Shown here piece after piece: positions 5,241-60,363 of a DNA stretch of 64,000 bases. Where the stretch lies: positions 9,626 to 73,625 of the forward strand of contig CADCHW010000001.1 of NCBI GenBank assembly GCA_902801245.1. Direction: 5' to 3'. Below the pieces are notes generated by a model, which worked only from the letters and a program-made list of their open reading frames with translations, was not told the origin of the DNA and ran no database searches. The position numbers were made by a program, and so were the translations under genes. The stretch is from an uncultured Ruminococcus sp. Lineage in GTDB: Bacteria > Bacillota > Clostridia > Oscillospirales > Acutalibacteraceae. Each line of letters opens with the position of its first letter. Positions within the stretch are counted from its first letter, which is position 1.

Positions 5241-5267
5241 ATTATACTAGGGTTTGAAAAGATTTAT

Positions 5268-5518
5268 CATTTTAAAGTTTGGTCAAGCTTTTCAAAGCTT
5301 GCGGGGTGCAGGGGCAGAGCCCCGCTCGCTGACGAAACCAACTTGCAAAGAAAAGTAAACTACCCTCAGCGAAACTAAACAAACTATGCTTAGAAAATAA
5401 AAATAAAAACAAAAACATATATAAAAACGTATCTATCTGTACAAACCAACAAAGGCAACAGCGTAGCGAATTGCCGGTCGAAGAAAGAAATTGGACGATT
5501 TTAAATTCAACCGTACAG
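5268..5518 (+). repeat. Family A intergenic repeat, copy A1 (lacks the left terminal inverted repeat)
   Basis: Shares the ~115-nt core and the GGCAACAGCGTAGCGAATTGCCGG block with copies at 40027, 49742, 58250(-) and 60124; right end CAACCGTACAG. Confidence 0.85.
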
Positions 5519-5925
5519 GTAGAATAATTTACATAAGGGGACAAAAGCCCTCCTTGTATTGATTAATGATTTTAACGGTAAGTATTTTCAGATAAGAGAG
5601 AAAAACATTAAAATGATTAATTGTTAGTATATAATTTCTTCGGTGGGTTCGGTGGGTTTCTGGGTTTTTTATATTAATTGTTAAGAAAAAAATAAAAATT
5701 AAAAATATATAAGACTTATTGAAAAAGGGTGCGAACCCACCGAACCTACCGAGGGTAAGCCACTCTCAATATACAATGATTTTATAAAATTGTATATTTC
5801 AATATTTTTGTAAGATATTATAAATTTAAATGCAAATATTTTAAATTGTAATGATATATTGATTAGAAGAGTGAAAGGTGAATAAAGAGTTTAACTTAGG
5901 TTAGTGTAAATAGGGCATTGTACGC

Positions 5926-18174: not shown

Positions 18175-19251
18175 TTATGCTCCGAAAAGTTCGGCAATTG
18201 CACTTTCTGAAATCTTAGAACCGATTACGCAAAGTCTGCCGATAGTTCCTGCTGTGCCTGTTCTTACATCGGGTTCGCCCGGAACATAGTCAAAGTGAAT
18301 CCATGCACCGTCTGTACCCTCAACAATACCCTTTGCACGAAGAATAATGCCGAACTTCTCCTCGTTTGCAAGCTCGTTCAAGGCTGCCGTAATATCCTCG
18401 GCTGTGAACTTCTTTGTAGTTTCAACACCCCAGCTTGTGAATACTTCGTCGGCATGGTGGTGATGATGATGTCCGTGTTCATGGTCGTGGTCGTGATGAT
18501 GTTCATGCTCATGGTCGTGATGATGTTCATGCTCATGGTCGTGGTCGTGGTCGTGGTCATGGTGATGTTCATGCTCATGGTCGTGGTCATGATGATGTCC
18601 GCAAACAGGGCAAACGTCCTCTTCTTCTTGTAGTTTTTTAAGTGCCTCTTCGAGAGTATTTTTATTTTCGATAGCAAGAACAATCTGTTCACCGCTGAGG
18701 TTATCCCAGTCGGTAGTGATAAGCTCTGCCTTTGCGTTATGCTCTCTGAGAAGCTTTACGCATGCAGCAAGTTTTTCGTCCGAAATATTTTTGGTATGGC
18801 TGAGAACAATCGCACTTGCGTGTTCAACCTGATTGTTGAAAAATTCGCCGAAATTCTTGATGTACATTTTGCACTTATTAGCGTCAACTACCGTTGTAAA
18901 GCTGTTGAGAACAATATCATCTGAATGAATATTTTCAACTGCGGCAATAACGTCACTGAGCTTGCCGACACCCGACGGCTCGATAATGATTCTGTCCGGT
19001 GAGTACTGAGCAAGAACCTTTTTGAGAGCCTCGCCGAAATCGCCGACCAAACTACAGCAAATACAGCCGGAGTTCATTTCCGTGATTTCAATGCCTGCGT
19101 CCTGCAAGAAACCGCCGTCAATGCCAATCTCGCCAAATTCGTTCTCTATAAGCACAAGCTTCTCGCCGCTGTAAGCTTCGGCAATAAGCTTCTTGATTAG
19201 CGTTGTCTTACCTGCTCCGAGAAAACCGGAGAAAATATCTACTTTTGTCAT
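18175..19251 (-). CDS. COG0523-family (CobW/ZigA/YciC-like) metallochaperone GTPase with a long His-rich insert
   Basis: GFLGAGKTTL P-loop; GCICCS CxCC motif; roughly 45-residue H/D/E run (HHHDHDHEHEHHHDHDH...HHHHHH). Confidence 0.85.
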   Translation of the reverse strand: MTKVDIFSGFLGAGKTTLIKKLIAEAYSGEKLVLIENEFGEIGIDGGFLQDAGIEITEMNSGCICCSLVGDFGEALKKVLAQYSPDRIIIEPSGVGKLSDVIAAVENIHSDDIVLNSFTTVVDANKCKMYIKNFGEFFNNQVEHASAIVLSHTKNISDEKLAACVKLLREHNAKAELITTDWDNLSGEQIVLAIENKNTLEEALKKLQEEEDVCPVCGHHHDHDHEHEHHHDHDHDHDHEHEHHHDHEHEHHHDHDHEHGHHHHHHADEVFTSWGVETTKKFTAEDITAALNELANEEKFGIILRAKGIVEGTDGAWIHFDYVPGEPDVRTGTAGTIGRLCVIGSKISESAIAELFGA

Positions 19252-31534: not shown

Positions 31535-31568
31535 CCGCAAAAGTAAAAACGCTTTTGCGGTTTTTTTT
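31535..31568 (+). terminator. Rho-independent terminator
   Basis: CCGCAAAAG...CTTTTGCGG stem followed by T8. Confidence 0.8.
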
Positions 31569-31620
31569 AACACGTGAAGATAGTTCTTCTGTAACGTAAC
31601 TTCACGAACCCGACCGATAG
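31569..31620. repeat. Family B palindromic repeat, isolated left arm (B1a)
   Basis: AACACGTGAAGATAGTTCTT...CTTCACGAACCCGACCGATAG, near-identical to 31787-31840. Confidence 0.8.
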
Positions 31621-31786
31621 AATGTTTAATGAGGTAGTTTTAGATTACTCTATTATAATTTGATTGTAAAAGTAATTTTAAATACAAAAAGTATTGCTAA
31701 CAAATAAAAATTTGTTGTCGAGCGGCGATGTGCAATATGTGAAGCAGCTTTTTTTCTTTTAGCTTTATGAATCCCACCGTTTTTTT

Positions 31787-31925
31787 AACACGTGAAGATA
31801 GTTCTTTTGTAATATAACTTCATGAGCCCGACCGATACTTTATTGTTACAGCGATTTTCGGTCGGGTGCGTGAAGTTATTTCTTAAAAAGACTATCTTCA
31901 CGTGTTTCCAGCGGACGTTGTCCGC
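31787..31925 (+). repeat. Family B palindromic repeat, full copy (B1b) with terminal hairpin
   Basis: CACGTGAAGATAG...CCCGACCGA / TCGGTCGGG...CTATCTTCACGTG long imperfect palindrome, then TTTCCA and hairpin GCGGACGTTGTCCGC. Confidence 0.85.
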
Positions 31926-31938
31926 CGTTACCCGCCGC

Positions 31939-40026: not shown

Positions 40027-40365
40027 TAGTTGTACGGTTGCGAAGCTTGTTAAAGTTTGGTCAAGCTTTTTAAAGCTTGCGGGCGACGGAACACCCCAAG
40101 AAGTCAAGCCGTTAGGCGTAGACTGATTGGTAGGTGTTCCTAGCGGTCTTGCACCATGCAGGGGCAGAGCCCTTGTCGCTGACGAATCCAACTTTCAAAG
40201 AAAAATAAACTACCCTCAGCGAAACTAAACAAACTATAATTAAAAAACAAAAATAAAAGCCTATATAAAATGTATCTTTCGATTAAAACCAAAACAGGCA
40301 ACAGCGTAGCGAATTGCCGGTCTAAGAAAGATATTGGACGATTTTAAATTCAACCGTACAGCTAC
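40027..40365 (+). repeat. Family A repeat, copy A2: complete, with terminal inverted repeats and a 9-bp flanking direct repeat
   Basis: Left end TAGTTGTACGGTTG, right end CAACCGTACAGCTAC; AAATTTTTT at 40018-40026 and 40366-40374; carries an extra ~73-nt hairpin at 40084-40156. Confidence 0.85.
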
Positions 40366-40392
40366 AAATTTTTTACTTAAAGGAAGAGGATT

Positions 40393-44737: not shown

Positions 44738-44917
44738 AAGAAGACAGTCTTTTTAAGAAATAGCTTCATCTACCCGACCGAAAGTATTTGGTATGATTGT
44801 TATTGTACTTCATAAAGTTGGTCAAAAATTGCCGCATTAAAATCAACTTTCGGTCGGGTAATAAAAGTTACGGATAAATCAAACTGTCTACACGTGTTTT
44901 CTGTCGGCATTGCCGAC
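44738..44917 (+). repeat. Family B palindromic repeat, full copy (B2)
   Basis: GAAGACAGTC...CCCGACCGAAAGT / ACTTTCGGTCGGG...ACTGTCTACACGTG, then hairpin GTCGGCATTGCCGAC. Confidence 0.8.
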
Positions 44918-44922
44918 CCGAC

Positions 44923-49670: not shown

Positions 49671-49741
49671 TAAAAATTCCGACGAAAATAATGTTAATTT
49701 TGACAAACTTCTTGATAATTTTTGCTATATCTTTCGGCGGA

Positions 49742-49988
49742 GCGAAGCTTGTTAAAGTTTGGTCAAGCTTTTCAAAGCTTGCGGGGTGCAGGGGCAGAGC
49801 CCCGCTCGCTGACGGAAAAAATTTGCAAAGAAAAGCAAACTACCCTCAGCGAAACTGAACAAACTATCAACAGCAAAATAAAAAAACAATCATAAAAACA
49901 ATATGTTCCGACATAAATAAAAGCAGGCAAGAGCGTATCGAATTGCCGATTTTAGAAAGATAACTTACGATTTGATTTCGACTGTACA
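49742..49988 (+). repeat. Family A repeat, copy A3
   Basis: GCGAAGCTTGTTAAAGTTTGGTCAAGC... core plus the CAGGCAAGAGCGTATCGAATTGCCG block; ends ...TCGACTGTACA. Confidence 0.85.
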
Positions 49989-53378: not shown

Positions 53379-53528
53379 CCGGCAGGAAATACGTGAAGAC
53401 AGTCCTCTTTATATTTACTTTATGCACCCGACCGAAAATCAATTTTAACAACGAGGTATCGGTCGGGTACGTGAAGTGAAAATTTTAAACAAAAGCTGCT
53501 TTACATGTTTCCTGCGGACGTTGTCCGC
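53379..53528 (+). repeat. Family B palindromic repeat, full copy (B3)
   Basis: CCGGCAGGAAATACGTGAAGACAGTC...CACCCGACCGAAAA / TATCGGTCGGGTACGTGAAG...CATGTTTCCTGCGG, then hairpin GCGGACGTTGTCCGC. Confidence 0.8.
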
Positions 53529-53703
53529 CGAATAATTTCTAATTTTTTTCCTGTATACAGGGGTTGAAATATAAATAAAATGTGATAAAATAGTATTAGC
53601 CGATTTTTGATAGGCATTTTATTTTTTAGTCTATAACCTATTAAACATATATTTTTTATATAAATTGGATATATATGATGTTGTGCGAAAGGAGTGTTGC
53701 AGA

Positions 53704-55474: not shown

Positions 55475-55545
55475 GACGGACAACGCCCGCTGGAAACATG
55501 TGAAGATAATCCTTTTAAATTTTATTTTTATGAACCCGACCAAAG
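55475..55545 (-). repeat. Family B repeat, partial copy (B4), inverted orientation
   Basis: Reverse complement reads ...GGTCGGGTTCAT...GGATTATCTTCACATGTTTCCAGCGGGCGTTGTCCGTC. Confidence 0.7.
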
Positions 55546-56884: not shown

Positions 56885-57751
56885 ATGAGAATAGTAAAAA
56901 CAATCGATGAAGTACGCAGTCAAGTGAAAGCGTGGAAAGCAGAGGGTTTGACGGTTGGTCTTGTGCCGACTATGGGATATTTGCACGAGGGTCACGCAAG
57001 CTTGATTGCAGCCTCTCACAGGGATAACGACAGAACTGTTGTTTCCGACTTTGTAAATCCCATGCAGTTCGGACCCGCAGAGGATTTGGAAAGCTATCCC
57101 CGTGACATAGACCACGATTCGGCGATAGTCGAGGAAAACGGCGGAGATTTGATATTCAATCCCGAACCCGATGAAATGTATCACAAAGGTTTTTCTTCGT
57201 TTGTTGATATGACCGTACTCACAGAGGAGCTTTGCGGTTTAAGCCGTCCGGTGCATTTCAGAGGTGTCTGCACTGTTGTTGCGAAGCTTTTCAATATTGT
57301 ACAGCCTAACCGTGCCTATTTCGGCAAAAAAGACGCACAGCAGCTTGCGGTTATACGTCATATGGTTGACGACCTTAATATGGATATTGAAATTGTCGGC
57401 TGTCCGATAGTGCGTGAAGAGGACGGTCTTGCGAAAAGCTCACGAAATACATATCTCAATTCCGAGGAACGCAGGGCGGCTCTTGTGCTTTCAAAGGCAA
57501 TTTTCCATGGCATTGATATGGTAAGGAACGGCGAAAAGGACTGTTCCGCCGTTATTTCTGAAATGAGCGGTATTATCAATGCAGAACCGCTTGCACGAAT
57601 TGATTATGTGAAAATTGTAGACTGCTCTACAATGCAGATTATCACCACACTTGACCGTCCGGCATTGTGTGCGATTGCGGTGTATATTGGAAATACACGT
57701 TTAATTGACAACTTCTTTACCCAAGACGTACAGCATGGAGGAGTATTATAA
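56885..57751 (+). CDS. panC: Pantoate--beta-alanine ligase
   Basis: [14 protein letters not shown]-like motif; FGKKDAQQ. Confidence 0.93.
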
Positions 57752-58143
57752 TGTATATTTCTATGCTGAAAAGTAAGATTCATCGTGCGGTAATTACACA
57801 GGCAGAGCTGAATTATGTTGGCAGCATTACTATTGACGAAGAGCTTATGGAAGCCGCAAATATTTATGAATATGAGCATGTTCATATTGTAAACGTCAAC
57901 AGCGGAAGCCGAATTGAAACATACGTTATTGCAGGCGAAAGGGGCAGCGGAATTATATGTCTTAACGGAGCGGCGGCACGTTCGGGGCAGAAAGGCGACA
58001 CTATTATAATTATGTCGTATGCCTCCGTGACACTCGAAGAAGCCGAAAAGAATCCGCCGAAGGTTGTTTTGGTTGACGAGAACAACAAGCCTGTCAAAAT
58101 CGCAAGCTACGAAAAACACGGCAAACTGTTTGATAATTTATAA
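57751..58143 (+). CDS. panD: Aspartate 1-decarboxylase
   Basis: [25 protein letters not shown] with the Gly-Ser self-cleavage site. Confidence 0.93.
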
Positions 58144-58191
58144 TTATAATAGTCGGAAGTTTTATTGTATAGCCGACAGAATAATTAAAAA

Positions 58192-58237
58192 AACACTAAG
58201 CGGATTTTTTTAATCTCTGCTTAGTGTTTTGCTTTTT
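58192..58237 (+). terminator. Rho-independent terminator after panD
   Basis: AACACTAAGC...GCTTAGTGTT stem followed by TTGCTTTTT. Confidence 0.7.
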
Positions 58238-58249
58238 ATTCCAAAGAGT

Positions 58250-58734
58250 TAAGATTTAGTTCTTTTCTTTCTTAGACCGGCAATTCGCTTTGCTCTTGCC
58301 TGTTTTGGTTGATATCGGAAGATGTTTTTTGATGTGTGTTTTTTATTTTGTTGTTTTGTTGAATAGAGTTCGTTTAGTTTCGCTGAGGGTAGTTTATTTT
58401 CTACGCTGATTTGCTGCGTCAGCGAGCATGGGCTCTGCCCCTGCATGGTGCAAGACCACTATAGCAAACCAAACAAATATCCGAACAAGTTCGGTGTCCC
58501 ACTGAGCACATGGCTGCGTTGTCGTCCTTGACATACGACAGTATGCCTGCGTCCTCCGCCTTGCCCTGCACTCAGCGGAATCACCTTCTTTTGTCCGTCT
58601 TTCTTTTGTCCGTCTATCTATTTGGATTGCTATAGGACACACCTACCAATCAGTCTACGCCTAACGGCTTGACTGATTGGGGTGTTCCGTCGCCCGCAAG
58701 CCTTTGTAAAGGCTTGAGAGAAACTTTAAAATGG
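58250..58734 (-). repeat. Family A repeat, copy A4 (longest; two nested GC-rich expansions), 7 nt downstream of the rlmD stop on the same strand
   Basis: Reverse complement carries the A core, the ~55-nt hairpin also seen in A2, and a further ~165-nt segment bounded by CTATAG (58459-58464 and 58630-58635). Confidence 0.85.
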
Positions 58735-58741
58735 TATAACT

Positions 58742-60109
58742 TTACATTGTCATTGACACAACCGTTTCAACATGCTGAGTTCTCGGAAACATATCAACGG
58801 GAGTAACCTCACCGACTTTAAATCCTCTTTCCTCAAACACCGCCAAATCCCGTGCAAGAGTTTCGGGGTCGCAGGAAACATAAACAACCCTTTTCGGTGA
58901 CATCTTGCATATCGATTCTATAACTACACTGTCACAGCCTTTTCTCGGAGGGTCAACAACCACAACATCGGGTGAGGTCTTGTTTTTGGAAAGCTCCTCC
59001 GCCGCCTTTGCCGCATCGGAACATATAAATTCCGCATTAGTAATGCCGTTGATATGAGCGTTCTCCTTAGCGTTTTCAATCGCTTGTGGAATAATCTCAA
59101 TACCCAAAACTTTCCTTGCCTTTTTCGCCATGGAAAGCCCTATAGTACCCGTTCCGCAGTATAGGTCAATCAAAAACTCCTCGCCGTTAAGCTGTGCATA
59201 CTCGGCAGCAATAGAGTACAGACGTTCCGTCTGATTTCTGTTTATCTGATAGAACGACAGGGGAGAGATGTTGAATTTCAGTCCGCATAGCTCGTCCGTG
59301 ATAAAGTCGCTTCCGTAAATCGTAACGCATTTTTTGCCCAACACAACATTTGTTTTTTCCTTGTTAATATTCAAAATCACGCTGTGAACATTGTCGGAAT
59401 AATACGTGAGCATTTTAACAAGTTCCTTACTGTGCGGCAGATTGTTTCCGTTTATCACGGGACAGACCATAATTTGACCGCTCTTTTTGGCGTGCCTTAA
59501 ATATAAGTGCCTAAGTAAGCCACGGTGAGAAATCTCATCATAAGTATCGATTTTATATGTGTCAATCCATTTTTTGAAAATCCCGACAATATCGTCAAAC
59601 TCTTTCGGGTGCAGACTGCATTCACCATTGCCGACAATTCTGTGACTGTGATTTCCGTAAAATCCCATTACGACTTTGTTATCCTTATCTCTGCCAATCG
59701 GAATTTGCGATTTGTTTCTGTATCCGTTCGGCTCTTCGCAGCCGATTATGTCATTCATATGAAAACCGTCAATTTTACCTATTCTTGTCAGTGCATCAAA
59801 AACTCTTTGCTGTTTGATTTTCAGTTCCTCTTCGTAGGAAATGTGCCTGAATACACAGCCGCCGCATTTTGAATAGCATTCGCAGTCGGGGACAATCCTG
59901 CTTTCCGAGGAAACAATGATACTTTCGATTTTCGCAAAAGCATAATTTTTCTTGACCTTTAAAATCCGTGCGGAAATTTTATCCCCGATTGCCGTCATAG
60001 GTACAAATATCGCCATACCGTCATATTTTCCGATTCCGCTTCCCTGACCTGTCATTTCCGTAATTTCAAGCTCGATAATGTCATTCTTTTTAATCTGCAA
60101 TTTAATCAC
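58742..60109 (-). CDS. rlmD: 23S rRNA (uracil-C5)-methyltransferase RlmD/RumA type
   Basis: N-terminal TRAM; Cys cluster CxxxxxxCGGC; SAM motif DLYCGTGTIG; C-terminal DMFPRTQHVE. Confidence 0.88.
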   Translation of the reverse strand: MIKLQIKKNDIIELEITEMTGQGSGIGKYDGMAIFVPMTAIGDKISARILKVKKNYAFAKIESIIVSSESRIVPDCECYSKCGGCVFRHISYEEELKIKQQRVFDALTRIGKIDGFHMNDIIGCEEPNGYRNKSQIPIGRDKDNKVVMGFYGNHSHRIVGNGECSLHPKEFDDIVGIFKKWIDTYKIDTYDEISHRGLLRHLYLRHAKKSGQIMVCPVINGNNLPHSKELVKMLTYYSDNVHSVILNINKEKTNVVLGKKCVTIYGSDFITDELCGLKFNISPLSFYQINRNQTERLYSIAAEYAQLNGEEFLIDLYCGTGTIGLSMAKKARKVLGIEIIPQAIENAKENAHINGITNAEFICSDAAKAAEELSKNKTSPDVVVVDPPRKGCDSVVIESICKMSPKRVVYVSCDPETLARDLAVFEERGFKVGEVTPVDMFPRTQHVETVVSMTM

Positions 60110-60123
60110 CCTTTAAAAAAATA

Positions 60124-60363
60124 TAGTTGTTAGACTGCGAAGCCTGTTAAAGTTTGGTCAAGCTTTTTAAAGCTTGCGGGGTGCAGGGGCAGAGCCCCGC
60201 TCGCTGACGAAACCAACTGTCAAAGAAAAATAAACTATCCTCAGCGAAATTAAAAAACTATTAACAGCAAGCAATAAAAACAAATCCTATCCGCATAAAT
60301 AAAATCAGGCAACAGCGAAGCGAATTGCCGGTCGTGAGAAAGATAACCCACAATTACGCATTA
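60124..60363 (+). repeat. Family A repeat, copy A5 (divergent right end)
   Basis: TAGTTGTTAGACTGCGAAGCCTGTTAAAGTTTGGTCAAGC... core plus the CAGGCAACAGCGAAGCGAATTGCCGG block; ends in CACAATTACGCATTA. Confidence 0.85.

Follow-up and report, generated by a model that had tools for sequence, protein, structure and literature searches.

RUP, the repeat unit of pneumococcus, is a MITE that depends on IS630-Spn1, inserts at TA, forms a hairpin and lies between genes, often inside other repeats or IS elements (PMC2229807, PMC3049150). BOX, RUP and SPRITE repeats are also found inserted in each other (PMC3049150). The RNA hairpin of the Correia element has been proposed as a target of RNase III (PMC2229807), and the ERIC/IRU repeats are co-transcribed palindromes with an orientation-dependent effect on mRNA stability (PMC2229807, PMC3049150). 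The locus described here lies at the 3' side of rlmD in a 64,000-nt stretch of DNA from an uncultured Ruminococcus sp. (the window), where a 485-nt segment is very probably a stack of three insertional layers (a family A repeat, a 74-nt segment and a 171-nt MITE) and not one RNA gene. The innermost layer resembles RUP in being short and non-coding, with terminal inverted repeats, insertion at TA and a hairpin fold. It measures 171 nt against RUP's 107 nt, and no sequence similarity between the two was seen. Unlike RUP, it has no cognate IS630-type element identified, and it combines a strong one-strand folding bias with an apex shared with differently ended families. The Correia/NEMIS elements of Neisseria also have a TA duplication and terminal inverted repeats of ~26-30 nt, and the Correia repeat, too, begins TATAG. 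Those elements are co-transcribed with neighbouring genes, as the MITE here would be if our reading of the locus holds. No sequence relation to them was seen, the host phylum is another one, and the IHF site and promoter function are features described for the Correia side. ERIC/IRU differ from the elements described here in sequence and in host.

The window carries five family A copies, A1 (5249-5524), A2 (40027-40367), A3 (49729-49970) and A5 (60124-60340) on the plus strand and A4 (58250-58741) alone on the minus strand, as shown by repeat search, alignment and an nhmmer profile. A4 is the longest of the five, as had been noted from the letters alone. It lies on the strand of rlmD (58742-60109, minus strand, from its ORF and translation; 23S rRNA (uracil-5)-methyltransferase, 455 aa), directly past the stop codon at 58742-58744, which its 5' end adjoins. 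The name RlmD is the one given to homologues by their sources; the Pfam domains TRAM and tRNA_U5-meth_tr were found on the identical protein of the same-species contig L002. The region from A4 to a bidirectional intrinsic terminator (58179-58241) lies between rlmD and panD (57751-58143, plus strand), and the terminator is common to panD on the plus strand and to rlmD plus A4 on the minus strand. Read along the minus strand, A4 opens with a family A 5' part (58693-58741) made of AGTTATACC, the 5' arm of P1, the P2 hairpin CAAGCCTTT-ACA-AAGGCTTG and then GCGGG. The 5' part of the 74-nt segment follows (58635-58692; CGAC and the hairpin GGAACACCCCAATCAGTC..GACTGATTGGTAGGTGTGTCC), then one TA (58633-58634), the 171-nt MITE (58462-58632), the second TA (58460-58461) and the 3' tail of the 74-nt segment (58446-58459; GTGGTCTTGCACCA). 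The family A 3' part (58250-58445) consists of the P3 hairpin GGGC-AGA-GCCC, the P4 helix TCGCTGA/TCAGCGA, the 3' arm of P1, an A-rich linker, the P5 hairpin GGCAA..TTGCC, and then AAGAAAGA and a terminal extension. The sequence-only reading had described two nested GC-rich expansions. Their GC-richness was borne out (MITE 49%, hairpin module 56%, window 39.5%), as were the CTATAG borders of the inner one (58459-58464 and 58630-58635). The nesting at hairpin tips was not: the segment with the ~55-nt hairpin sits in the junction 5' of P3 and not at the tip of a GCGGGG...CCCCGC hairpin, and the inner segment is inserted 3' of the ~55-nt hairpin and not at its tip.

Scanning genome contigs with the family A core pattern gave at least 24 loci, at least 21 of them from the rumen MAG 'uncultured Ruminococcus sp. 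RUG10904'. Family A thus defined is an intergenic repeat of 230-290 nt, interspersed in the genomes of rumen Ruminococcus-like Clostridia, with conserved hairpins P2 to P5. Its short copies share the P2 hairpin, the A-rich linker, the GGCAA..TTGCC hairpin and the invariant helix TCGCTGA/TCAGCGA. In place of the GCGGGG...CCCCGC hairpin described earlier, covariation supports the GGGC-AGA-GCCC hairpin with a variable stem base (GCAGGGGC/GCCCYGC, CAAGGGC/GCCCTTG, CCAAAGGC/GCCTTTGG). A possible closing helix, P1, is rich in G:U pairs (35 G:U cells vs 2 A:C cells). At their ends the copies differ, the terminal extension being of two types. Contig L069, whose RlmD is 88% identical, has an A4-subtype copy right after rlmD that extends further at its 5' end than A4 and carries neither the 74-nt segment nor the MITE, and contigs L068 and L070 have no family A copy after rlmD. 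Across the copies in L037-L060, L069 and the window, family A lies in the sense of the upstream gene in 24 of 34 cases and often starts 0-30 nt past the stop codon; this proximity points either to preferential targeting near stop codons or to selection in favour of 3' UTR sites. Searches of the whole window against Rfam at gathering thresholds, and of A4 and A1 at E up to 10, returned one tRNA and noise; BLAST of A4 and A1 against phages and plasmids gave no match, and scanning viral contigs with the family A core gave chance matches or none. In its presence or absence at orthologous sites, family A resembles a BOX- or ERIC-type interspersed repeat. BOX of Streptococcus (boxA-boxB-boxC), a modular, variable-length, extensively folded and co-transcribed interspersed repeat, would by analogy be the best counterpart of a family A with an optional 74-nt segment, with the differences that the family A module is single and not tandem as in BOX, that no sequence similarity exists and that family A ends are heterogeneous. 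Two other identities were considered and rejected: a TnpB/IscB-type guide-RNA scaffold, because the family A 3' ends, variable at first sight, sort into two or three conserved classes pairing with the 5' ends, and a retron-like a1/a2 arrangement, on account of the five copies and the lack of a reverse transcriptase gene in the vicinity. The two copies at rlmD, A4 (58250-58741, minus) and A5 (60124-60340, plus), bracket the gene in inverted orientation with both 5' ends toward it. A5, which lies upstream of rlmD and is flanked by TA, is missing from the rlmD-murC spacer of L069 and L070, which makes this bracketing a recent and probably chance arrangement.

The middle layer is an extra segment of ~74 nt that A4 and A2 share after GCTTGCGGG and that contains the ~55-nt hairpin GGAACACC...GGTGT(G)TCC. 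It is present in ~13 family A copies in about 260 kb of RUG10904-type DNA plus the window, and all 13 occurrences fall at position 76/79 of the family A HMM, with GCTTGCGGG before and (T)GCAGGGGC after them. A covariance model built from the segment matched 20 times in 288 kb, on both strands, always inside family A and never outside it; BLAST likewise found it only within family A and at one position, and viral scans gave only chance matches in coding DNA. No target duplication surrounds it, and partial-deletion forms occur in L056 and L043. The 55-nt module, which the earlier account had suggested seeking as an independent unit, thus has no copy of its own in this DNA. With no free-standing copy and no target duplication, the segment behaves as a subfamily-specific arm of family A. 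It could stem from one old insertion or be an optional arm, and it may even be ancestral to the short form and not inserted at all. The hairpin itself is preserved in 94% of cells and shows two compensatory pairs. Its tandem G·A/A·G internal loop is conserved too, except in A4, where Watson-Crick pairs have replaced it.

For the innermost layer, same-species metagenome contigs were retrieved by look-up of the exact PanD protein and aligned to the window. Contigs L004 and L005, with identical panD, equal the window minus exactly 173 nt. They read ...GCAAGACCAC-TA-GGACACACC... at this point, giving an empty site CCAC-TA-GGAC (CCACTAGGAC). The window, L001 and L002 have the filled allele CCAC-TA-[ TAGCAAACC...GGATTGCTA, 171 or 156 nt ]-TA-GGAC. 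Apart from the indel and one change in the length of a T run, the flanks show 0 mismatches in 457 aligned bases. The target is therefore CTAG with TA duplicated, and the insertion point, CC|TA|G, lies in the tail of the 74-nt segment. The element, whose terminal inverted repeats begin TAGCAAWCCAAAYARATA, has 30-nt arms (58459-58488 and 58606-58635) that are 80% complementary, and it contains only short ORFs. The window copy measures 171 nt, and those of L002 and of L067, a rumen metagenome scaffold, measure 156 nt. A 15-bp tandem duplication of the window copy (58586-58615, TTCTTTTGTCCGTCT twice) is a single unit in the same insertion in L001 and L002, which points to strain-level microvariation. 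L001 stops exactly at the MITE edge, as expected at a repeat. To look for further copies, the element was translated in six frames and the resulting pseudo-protein compared with a protein collection. The sole match was P0001, a chimeric N-terminal fragment of an hsdR product (type I restriction enzyme R subunit) on L067. There the site reads GTGAC-TA-[156-nt element, 88% identical]-TA-AGGGC, with CTAA as target, and deletion of the element and one TA restores a single hsdR ORF of 1,086 aa. Since this copy has its own TA duplication, the 171-nt element occurs free-standing, as the earlier account had allowed for in its nested-insertion alternative. The family was thus recovered at two independent genomic sites on different contigs, with no second copy in the 64-kb window. 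Judged from these alignments, the innermost segment is an inserted MITE whose entry appears to be very recent; in principle, the empty site could instead be the product of precise excision and not the ancestral state.

DDE transposases of the IS630/Tc1-mariner type insert at TA, frequently in a CTAR context. Here TA is duplicated at CTAR targets (CTAG in the window, CTAA in L067); together with what is known of this family from RUP and IS630-Spn1, this suggests that the MITE would be mobilised in trans by an enzyme of this type. A search of the fetched loci and of viral contigs yielded no autonomous IS with matching ends, and the fetched DNA yielded no transposase gene. Scanning viral contigs with the terminal repeat gave 29 single chance matches only, and scanning metagenomes with paired terminal repeats gave 6 unrelated palindromes only.

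Other MITEs have entered family A as well. MITE-B, with ends GGAACTGT.., a TWA duplication, forms of 71 to ~200 nt and dozens of copies, lies inside several family A copies of RUG10904, and MITE-C lies inside one. MITE-D, with ends GAGCCTGTTTAAAA and a TNA duplication, is in turn found inside MITE-B in RUG10904, inserted at TGA within the MITE-B core, and a chimeric element in L042 joins the left arm of MITE-B, at the core, to the right arm of MITE-D (chimeric and nested MITEs and core-starting loci: L042 5147-5330, L058 2746-3024 and L040 1-110). MITE nesting is common in this clade; pneumococcal repeats likewise insert into one another (PMC3049150). Many RUG10904 loci begin inside the MITE-B core, which probably reflects splitting at assembly gaps at hairpins and not biology. 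MITEs inserted into other repeats of a 3' UTR are already known, and the composite at rlmD is accordingly ordinary in kind and matters little. The stacked repeats seen here do serve as a warning against reading such stacks as a large structured RNA.

Helices that work on one strand only, through G:U pairs, had been described for the expansions of A4 and A2. This holds for the inner element and fails for the ~55-nt hairpin, which folds equally well on both strands in A2 as elsewhere (A4 -33.8/-33.4, A2 -30.8/-28.4, mean about -28/-27). As RNA, the window MITE folds on the minus strand into one long hairpin at -76.3 kcal/mol (z -9.2) with 8 G:U pairs, and on the plus strand at -46.9 kcal/mol (z -3.7). 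The favoured and unfavoured strands of the other copies give -77 vs -53 kcal/mol (L067) and -80 vs -49 kcal/mol (L002). The inner 12-14-bp helix (within 58499-58578, minus strand) includes the 12-bp pairing of 58499-58510 with 58567-58578, three of its pairs being G:U, exactly as first described; the small hairpins CCGAAC..GTTCGG and GCATAC..GTATGT are present too. This helix covaries in the L067 copy, several positions having changed between the two copies with pairing kept. The strand assignment of the MITE follows its well-folding strand, which carries at the centre a ~25-nt sequence, CGCAGGCAUACUGUCGUAUGUCAA (58528-58551; TTGACATACGACAGTATGCCTGCG on the plus strand). The same sequence recurs at the apex of MITE-B, MITE-D and families E and F, the last two on viral contigs. 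The motif, TTGAMATACGWCAGTATKCCTGCG, thus caps at least five MITE-like long-hairpin families, at least four of them besides the one in the window, with unrelated arms and target duplications of TA or TWA (window 58528-58551; L068 3737-3896; L045 3997-4151; L075 1604-1763; L074 11348-11521). Its 5-bp apical stem covaries between C..G and A..T. In all seven elements examined from the five families, the CGCAGG..UCAA strand folds better, by 16-40 kcal/mol and with 5-10 G:U pairs. The strand bias first noted in A4 is therefore reproduced in the L067 copy and in four other MITE families, which marks it as a real single-strand constraint, one attached to the mobile element, not to any RNA of family A. 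It is, moreover, intrinsic to these elements, as nested MITEs occur in either orientation relative to family A and the favoured strand shows no preference for the sense of the upstream gene (same sense in 9 cases, opposite in 16; for MITE-B 4 vs 2). This lack of co-orientation argues against read-through transcription as the selective context. One-strand G:U folding is thus a built-in property of a MITE superfamily with a ~25-nt apex motif. A literature search for the apex sequence gave no match, and the combination of a shared apex with one-strand folding across MITE families is, as far as we have checked, undescribed.

The cause of the bias could lie in selection at the RNA level, in a single-stranded DNA stage or in mutational bias. 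That families with unrelated arms and different duplications have the same apex and the same favoured strand suggests a constraint on a single-stranded form, probably RNA, and one-strand folding is most likely maintained at that level. Plasmid single-strand origins such as ssoA and the ssDNA promoter Frpo also have long one-strand hairpins with a short conserved apical motif and variable arms. By analogy with these and with the sites of HUH endonucleases, the hairpin and apex could be recognised as ssDNA during replication, transfer or transposition. The recurrence of one apex and one favoured strand in five families with unrelated arms would fit such a stage equally, and so would the members on viral contigs and the want of any orientation preference relative to neighbouring genes. 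We regard it as unlikely, however, since the strand asymmetry nearly disappears when DNA parameters are used (-30.3 vs -23.8), quite unlike the one-strand folding of ssoA and Frpo. Those sites, moreover, are not transposable and have neither terminal inverted repeats nor target duplications, whereas the TA/TWA duplications and terminal inverted repeats found here point to cut-and-paste DDE transposition of double-stranded DNA; in an incidental, not systematic, look no Rep or HUH gene was noticed nearby. On a neutral account, the master copies were near-perfect palindromes degraded by strand-biased transitions (C-to-T deamination), with the apex spread by recombination. The G content does lie well above the C content on the well-folding strand in 7 of 7 elements, and chimeras such as that in L042 exist. 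Yet the bias has the same direction relative to the apex in five families, the inner helix has stayed paired through several changes between the window and L067 copies, and the apical stem exchanges C..G for A..T; taken together, these make a neutral origin about as improbable as an ssDNA stage. Constraint on the RNA thus stays the preferred explanation. A wider version of it would place the 171-nt element in a superfamily of mobile long-hairpin RNA genes, in which the apex CGCAGG-MAUAC-UGWC-GUAUK-UCAAGG is a protein recognition site, the arms are free to vary under a one-strand pairing constraint (G:U, at the RNA level), and the whole travels as cargo enclosed by transposon ends of two or more kinds (TA and TWA) in rumen and gut Clostridia and their phages. 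We put this forward tentatively, as a possibility more doubtful than not. Were the apex a protein-binding or processing site, the elements would be a means of spreading one RNA module among rumen and gut microbes, in their genomes and in their phages.

As for the composite, one of the two explanations offered by the sequence-only reading was a single large modular structured RNA in the rlmD 3' UTR, with the 55-nt and 171-nt segments as functional expansion domains. Several observations are compatible with it: the complete A4 reaches -169 kcal/mol on folding (z -8.2), there is some covariation in the family A core at the P3 stem base and in P1 (the 35 G:U against 2 A:C cells given above), family A tends to lie in the sense of the upstream gene close to its stop, and the 55-nt hairpin is well conserved with compensatory pairs. 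In the minimum-free-energy structure, however, the layers fold as independent neighbouring hairpins, and the covariation is confined to individual hairpins, none of it joining one layer to another. Strains that are otherwise identical differ in whether they have the 171-nt segment, which is also seen within a coding gene, hsdR, while the L069 copy after rlmD does without either expansion and other nested MITEs sit in both orientations relative to family A. The family A core has no sense-strand advantage (-32 sense vs -35 antisense), and it matches nothing in Rfam. A single modular RNA is accordingly very unlikely. The other explanation, serial nested insertion of small elements, is well founded for the innermost segment, with its empty site, TA duplication and hsdR copy; the 55-nt layer fits neither firmly. 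A stack of layers thus remains by far the better description of A4.

On the minus strand, transcription leaving rlmD would meet its first intrinsic terminator at the bidirectional hairpin 58179-58241. As no intrinsic terminator intervenes between rlmD and 58241, A4 is likely to be co-transcribed with rlmD, as the earlier reading had also supposed, and rlmD transcripts would run through A4 to this terminator. The sole other candidate is a weak terminator-like hairpin in the MITE terminal repeat (58481-58494, minus strand; CCGAACTTGTTCGG followed by ATATTTGTTT), which could cause partial termination in the rlmD 3' region of strains with the insertion. Transcripts that pass through the MITE would gain a long hairpin (about -76 kcal/mol), and this, if Correia, ERIC and BOX elements are a guide, would be a plausible substrate for RNase III or a block to exonucleases. 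At rlmD, the strain polymorphism supplies two natural alleles, one with the hairpin and one lacking it, on which mRNA fate could be tested.

Two further repeats of the window deserve mention. A separate repeat family with inverted ends AACACGTGAAG / CTTCACGTGTT and a GCGGACGTTGTCCGC hairpin, also found in L069 and L041 and matching nothing in Rfam, occurs at 31562-31619, 31780-31837 and 55488-55545 and at 31896-31927, 44888-44919 and 53499-53530. At 18448-18609, 12-18-nt periodic repeats rich in GTG and ATG lie inside a minus-strand ORF (18175-19251), where they would encode a histidine-rich stretch on that strand.
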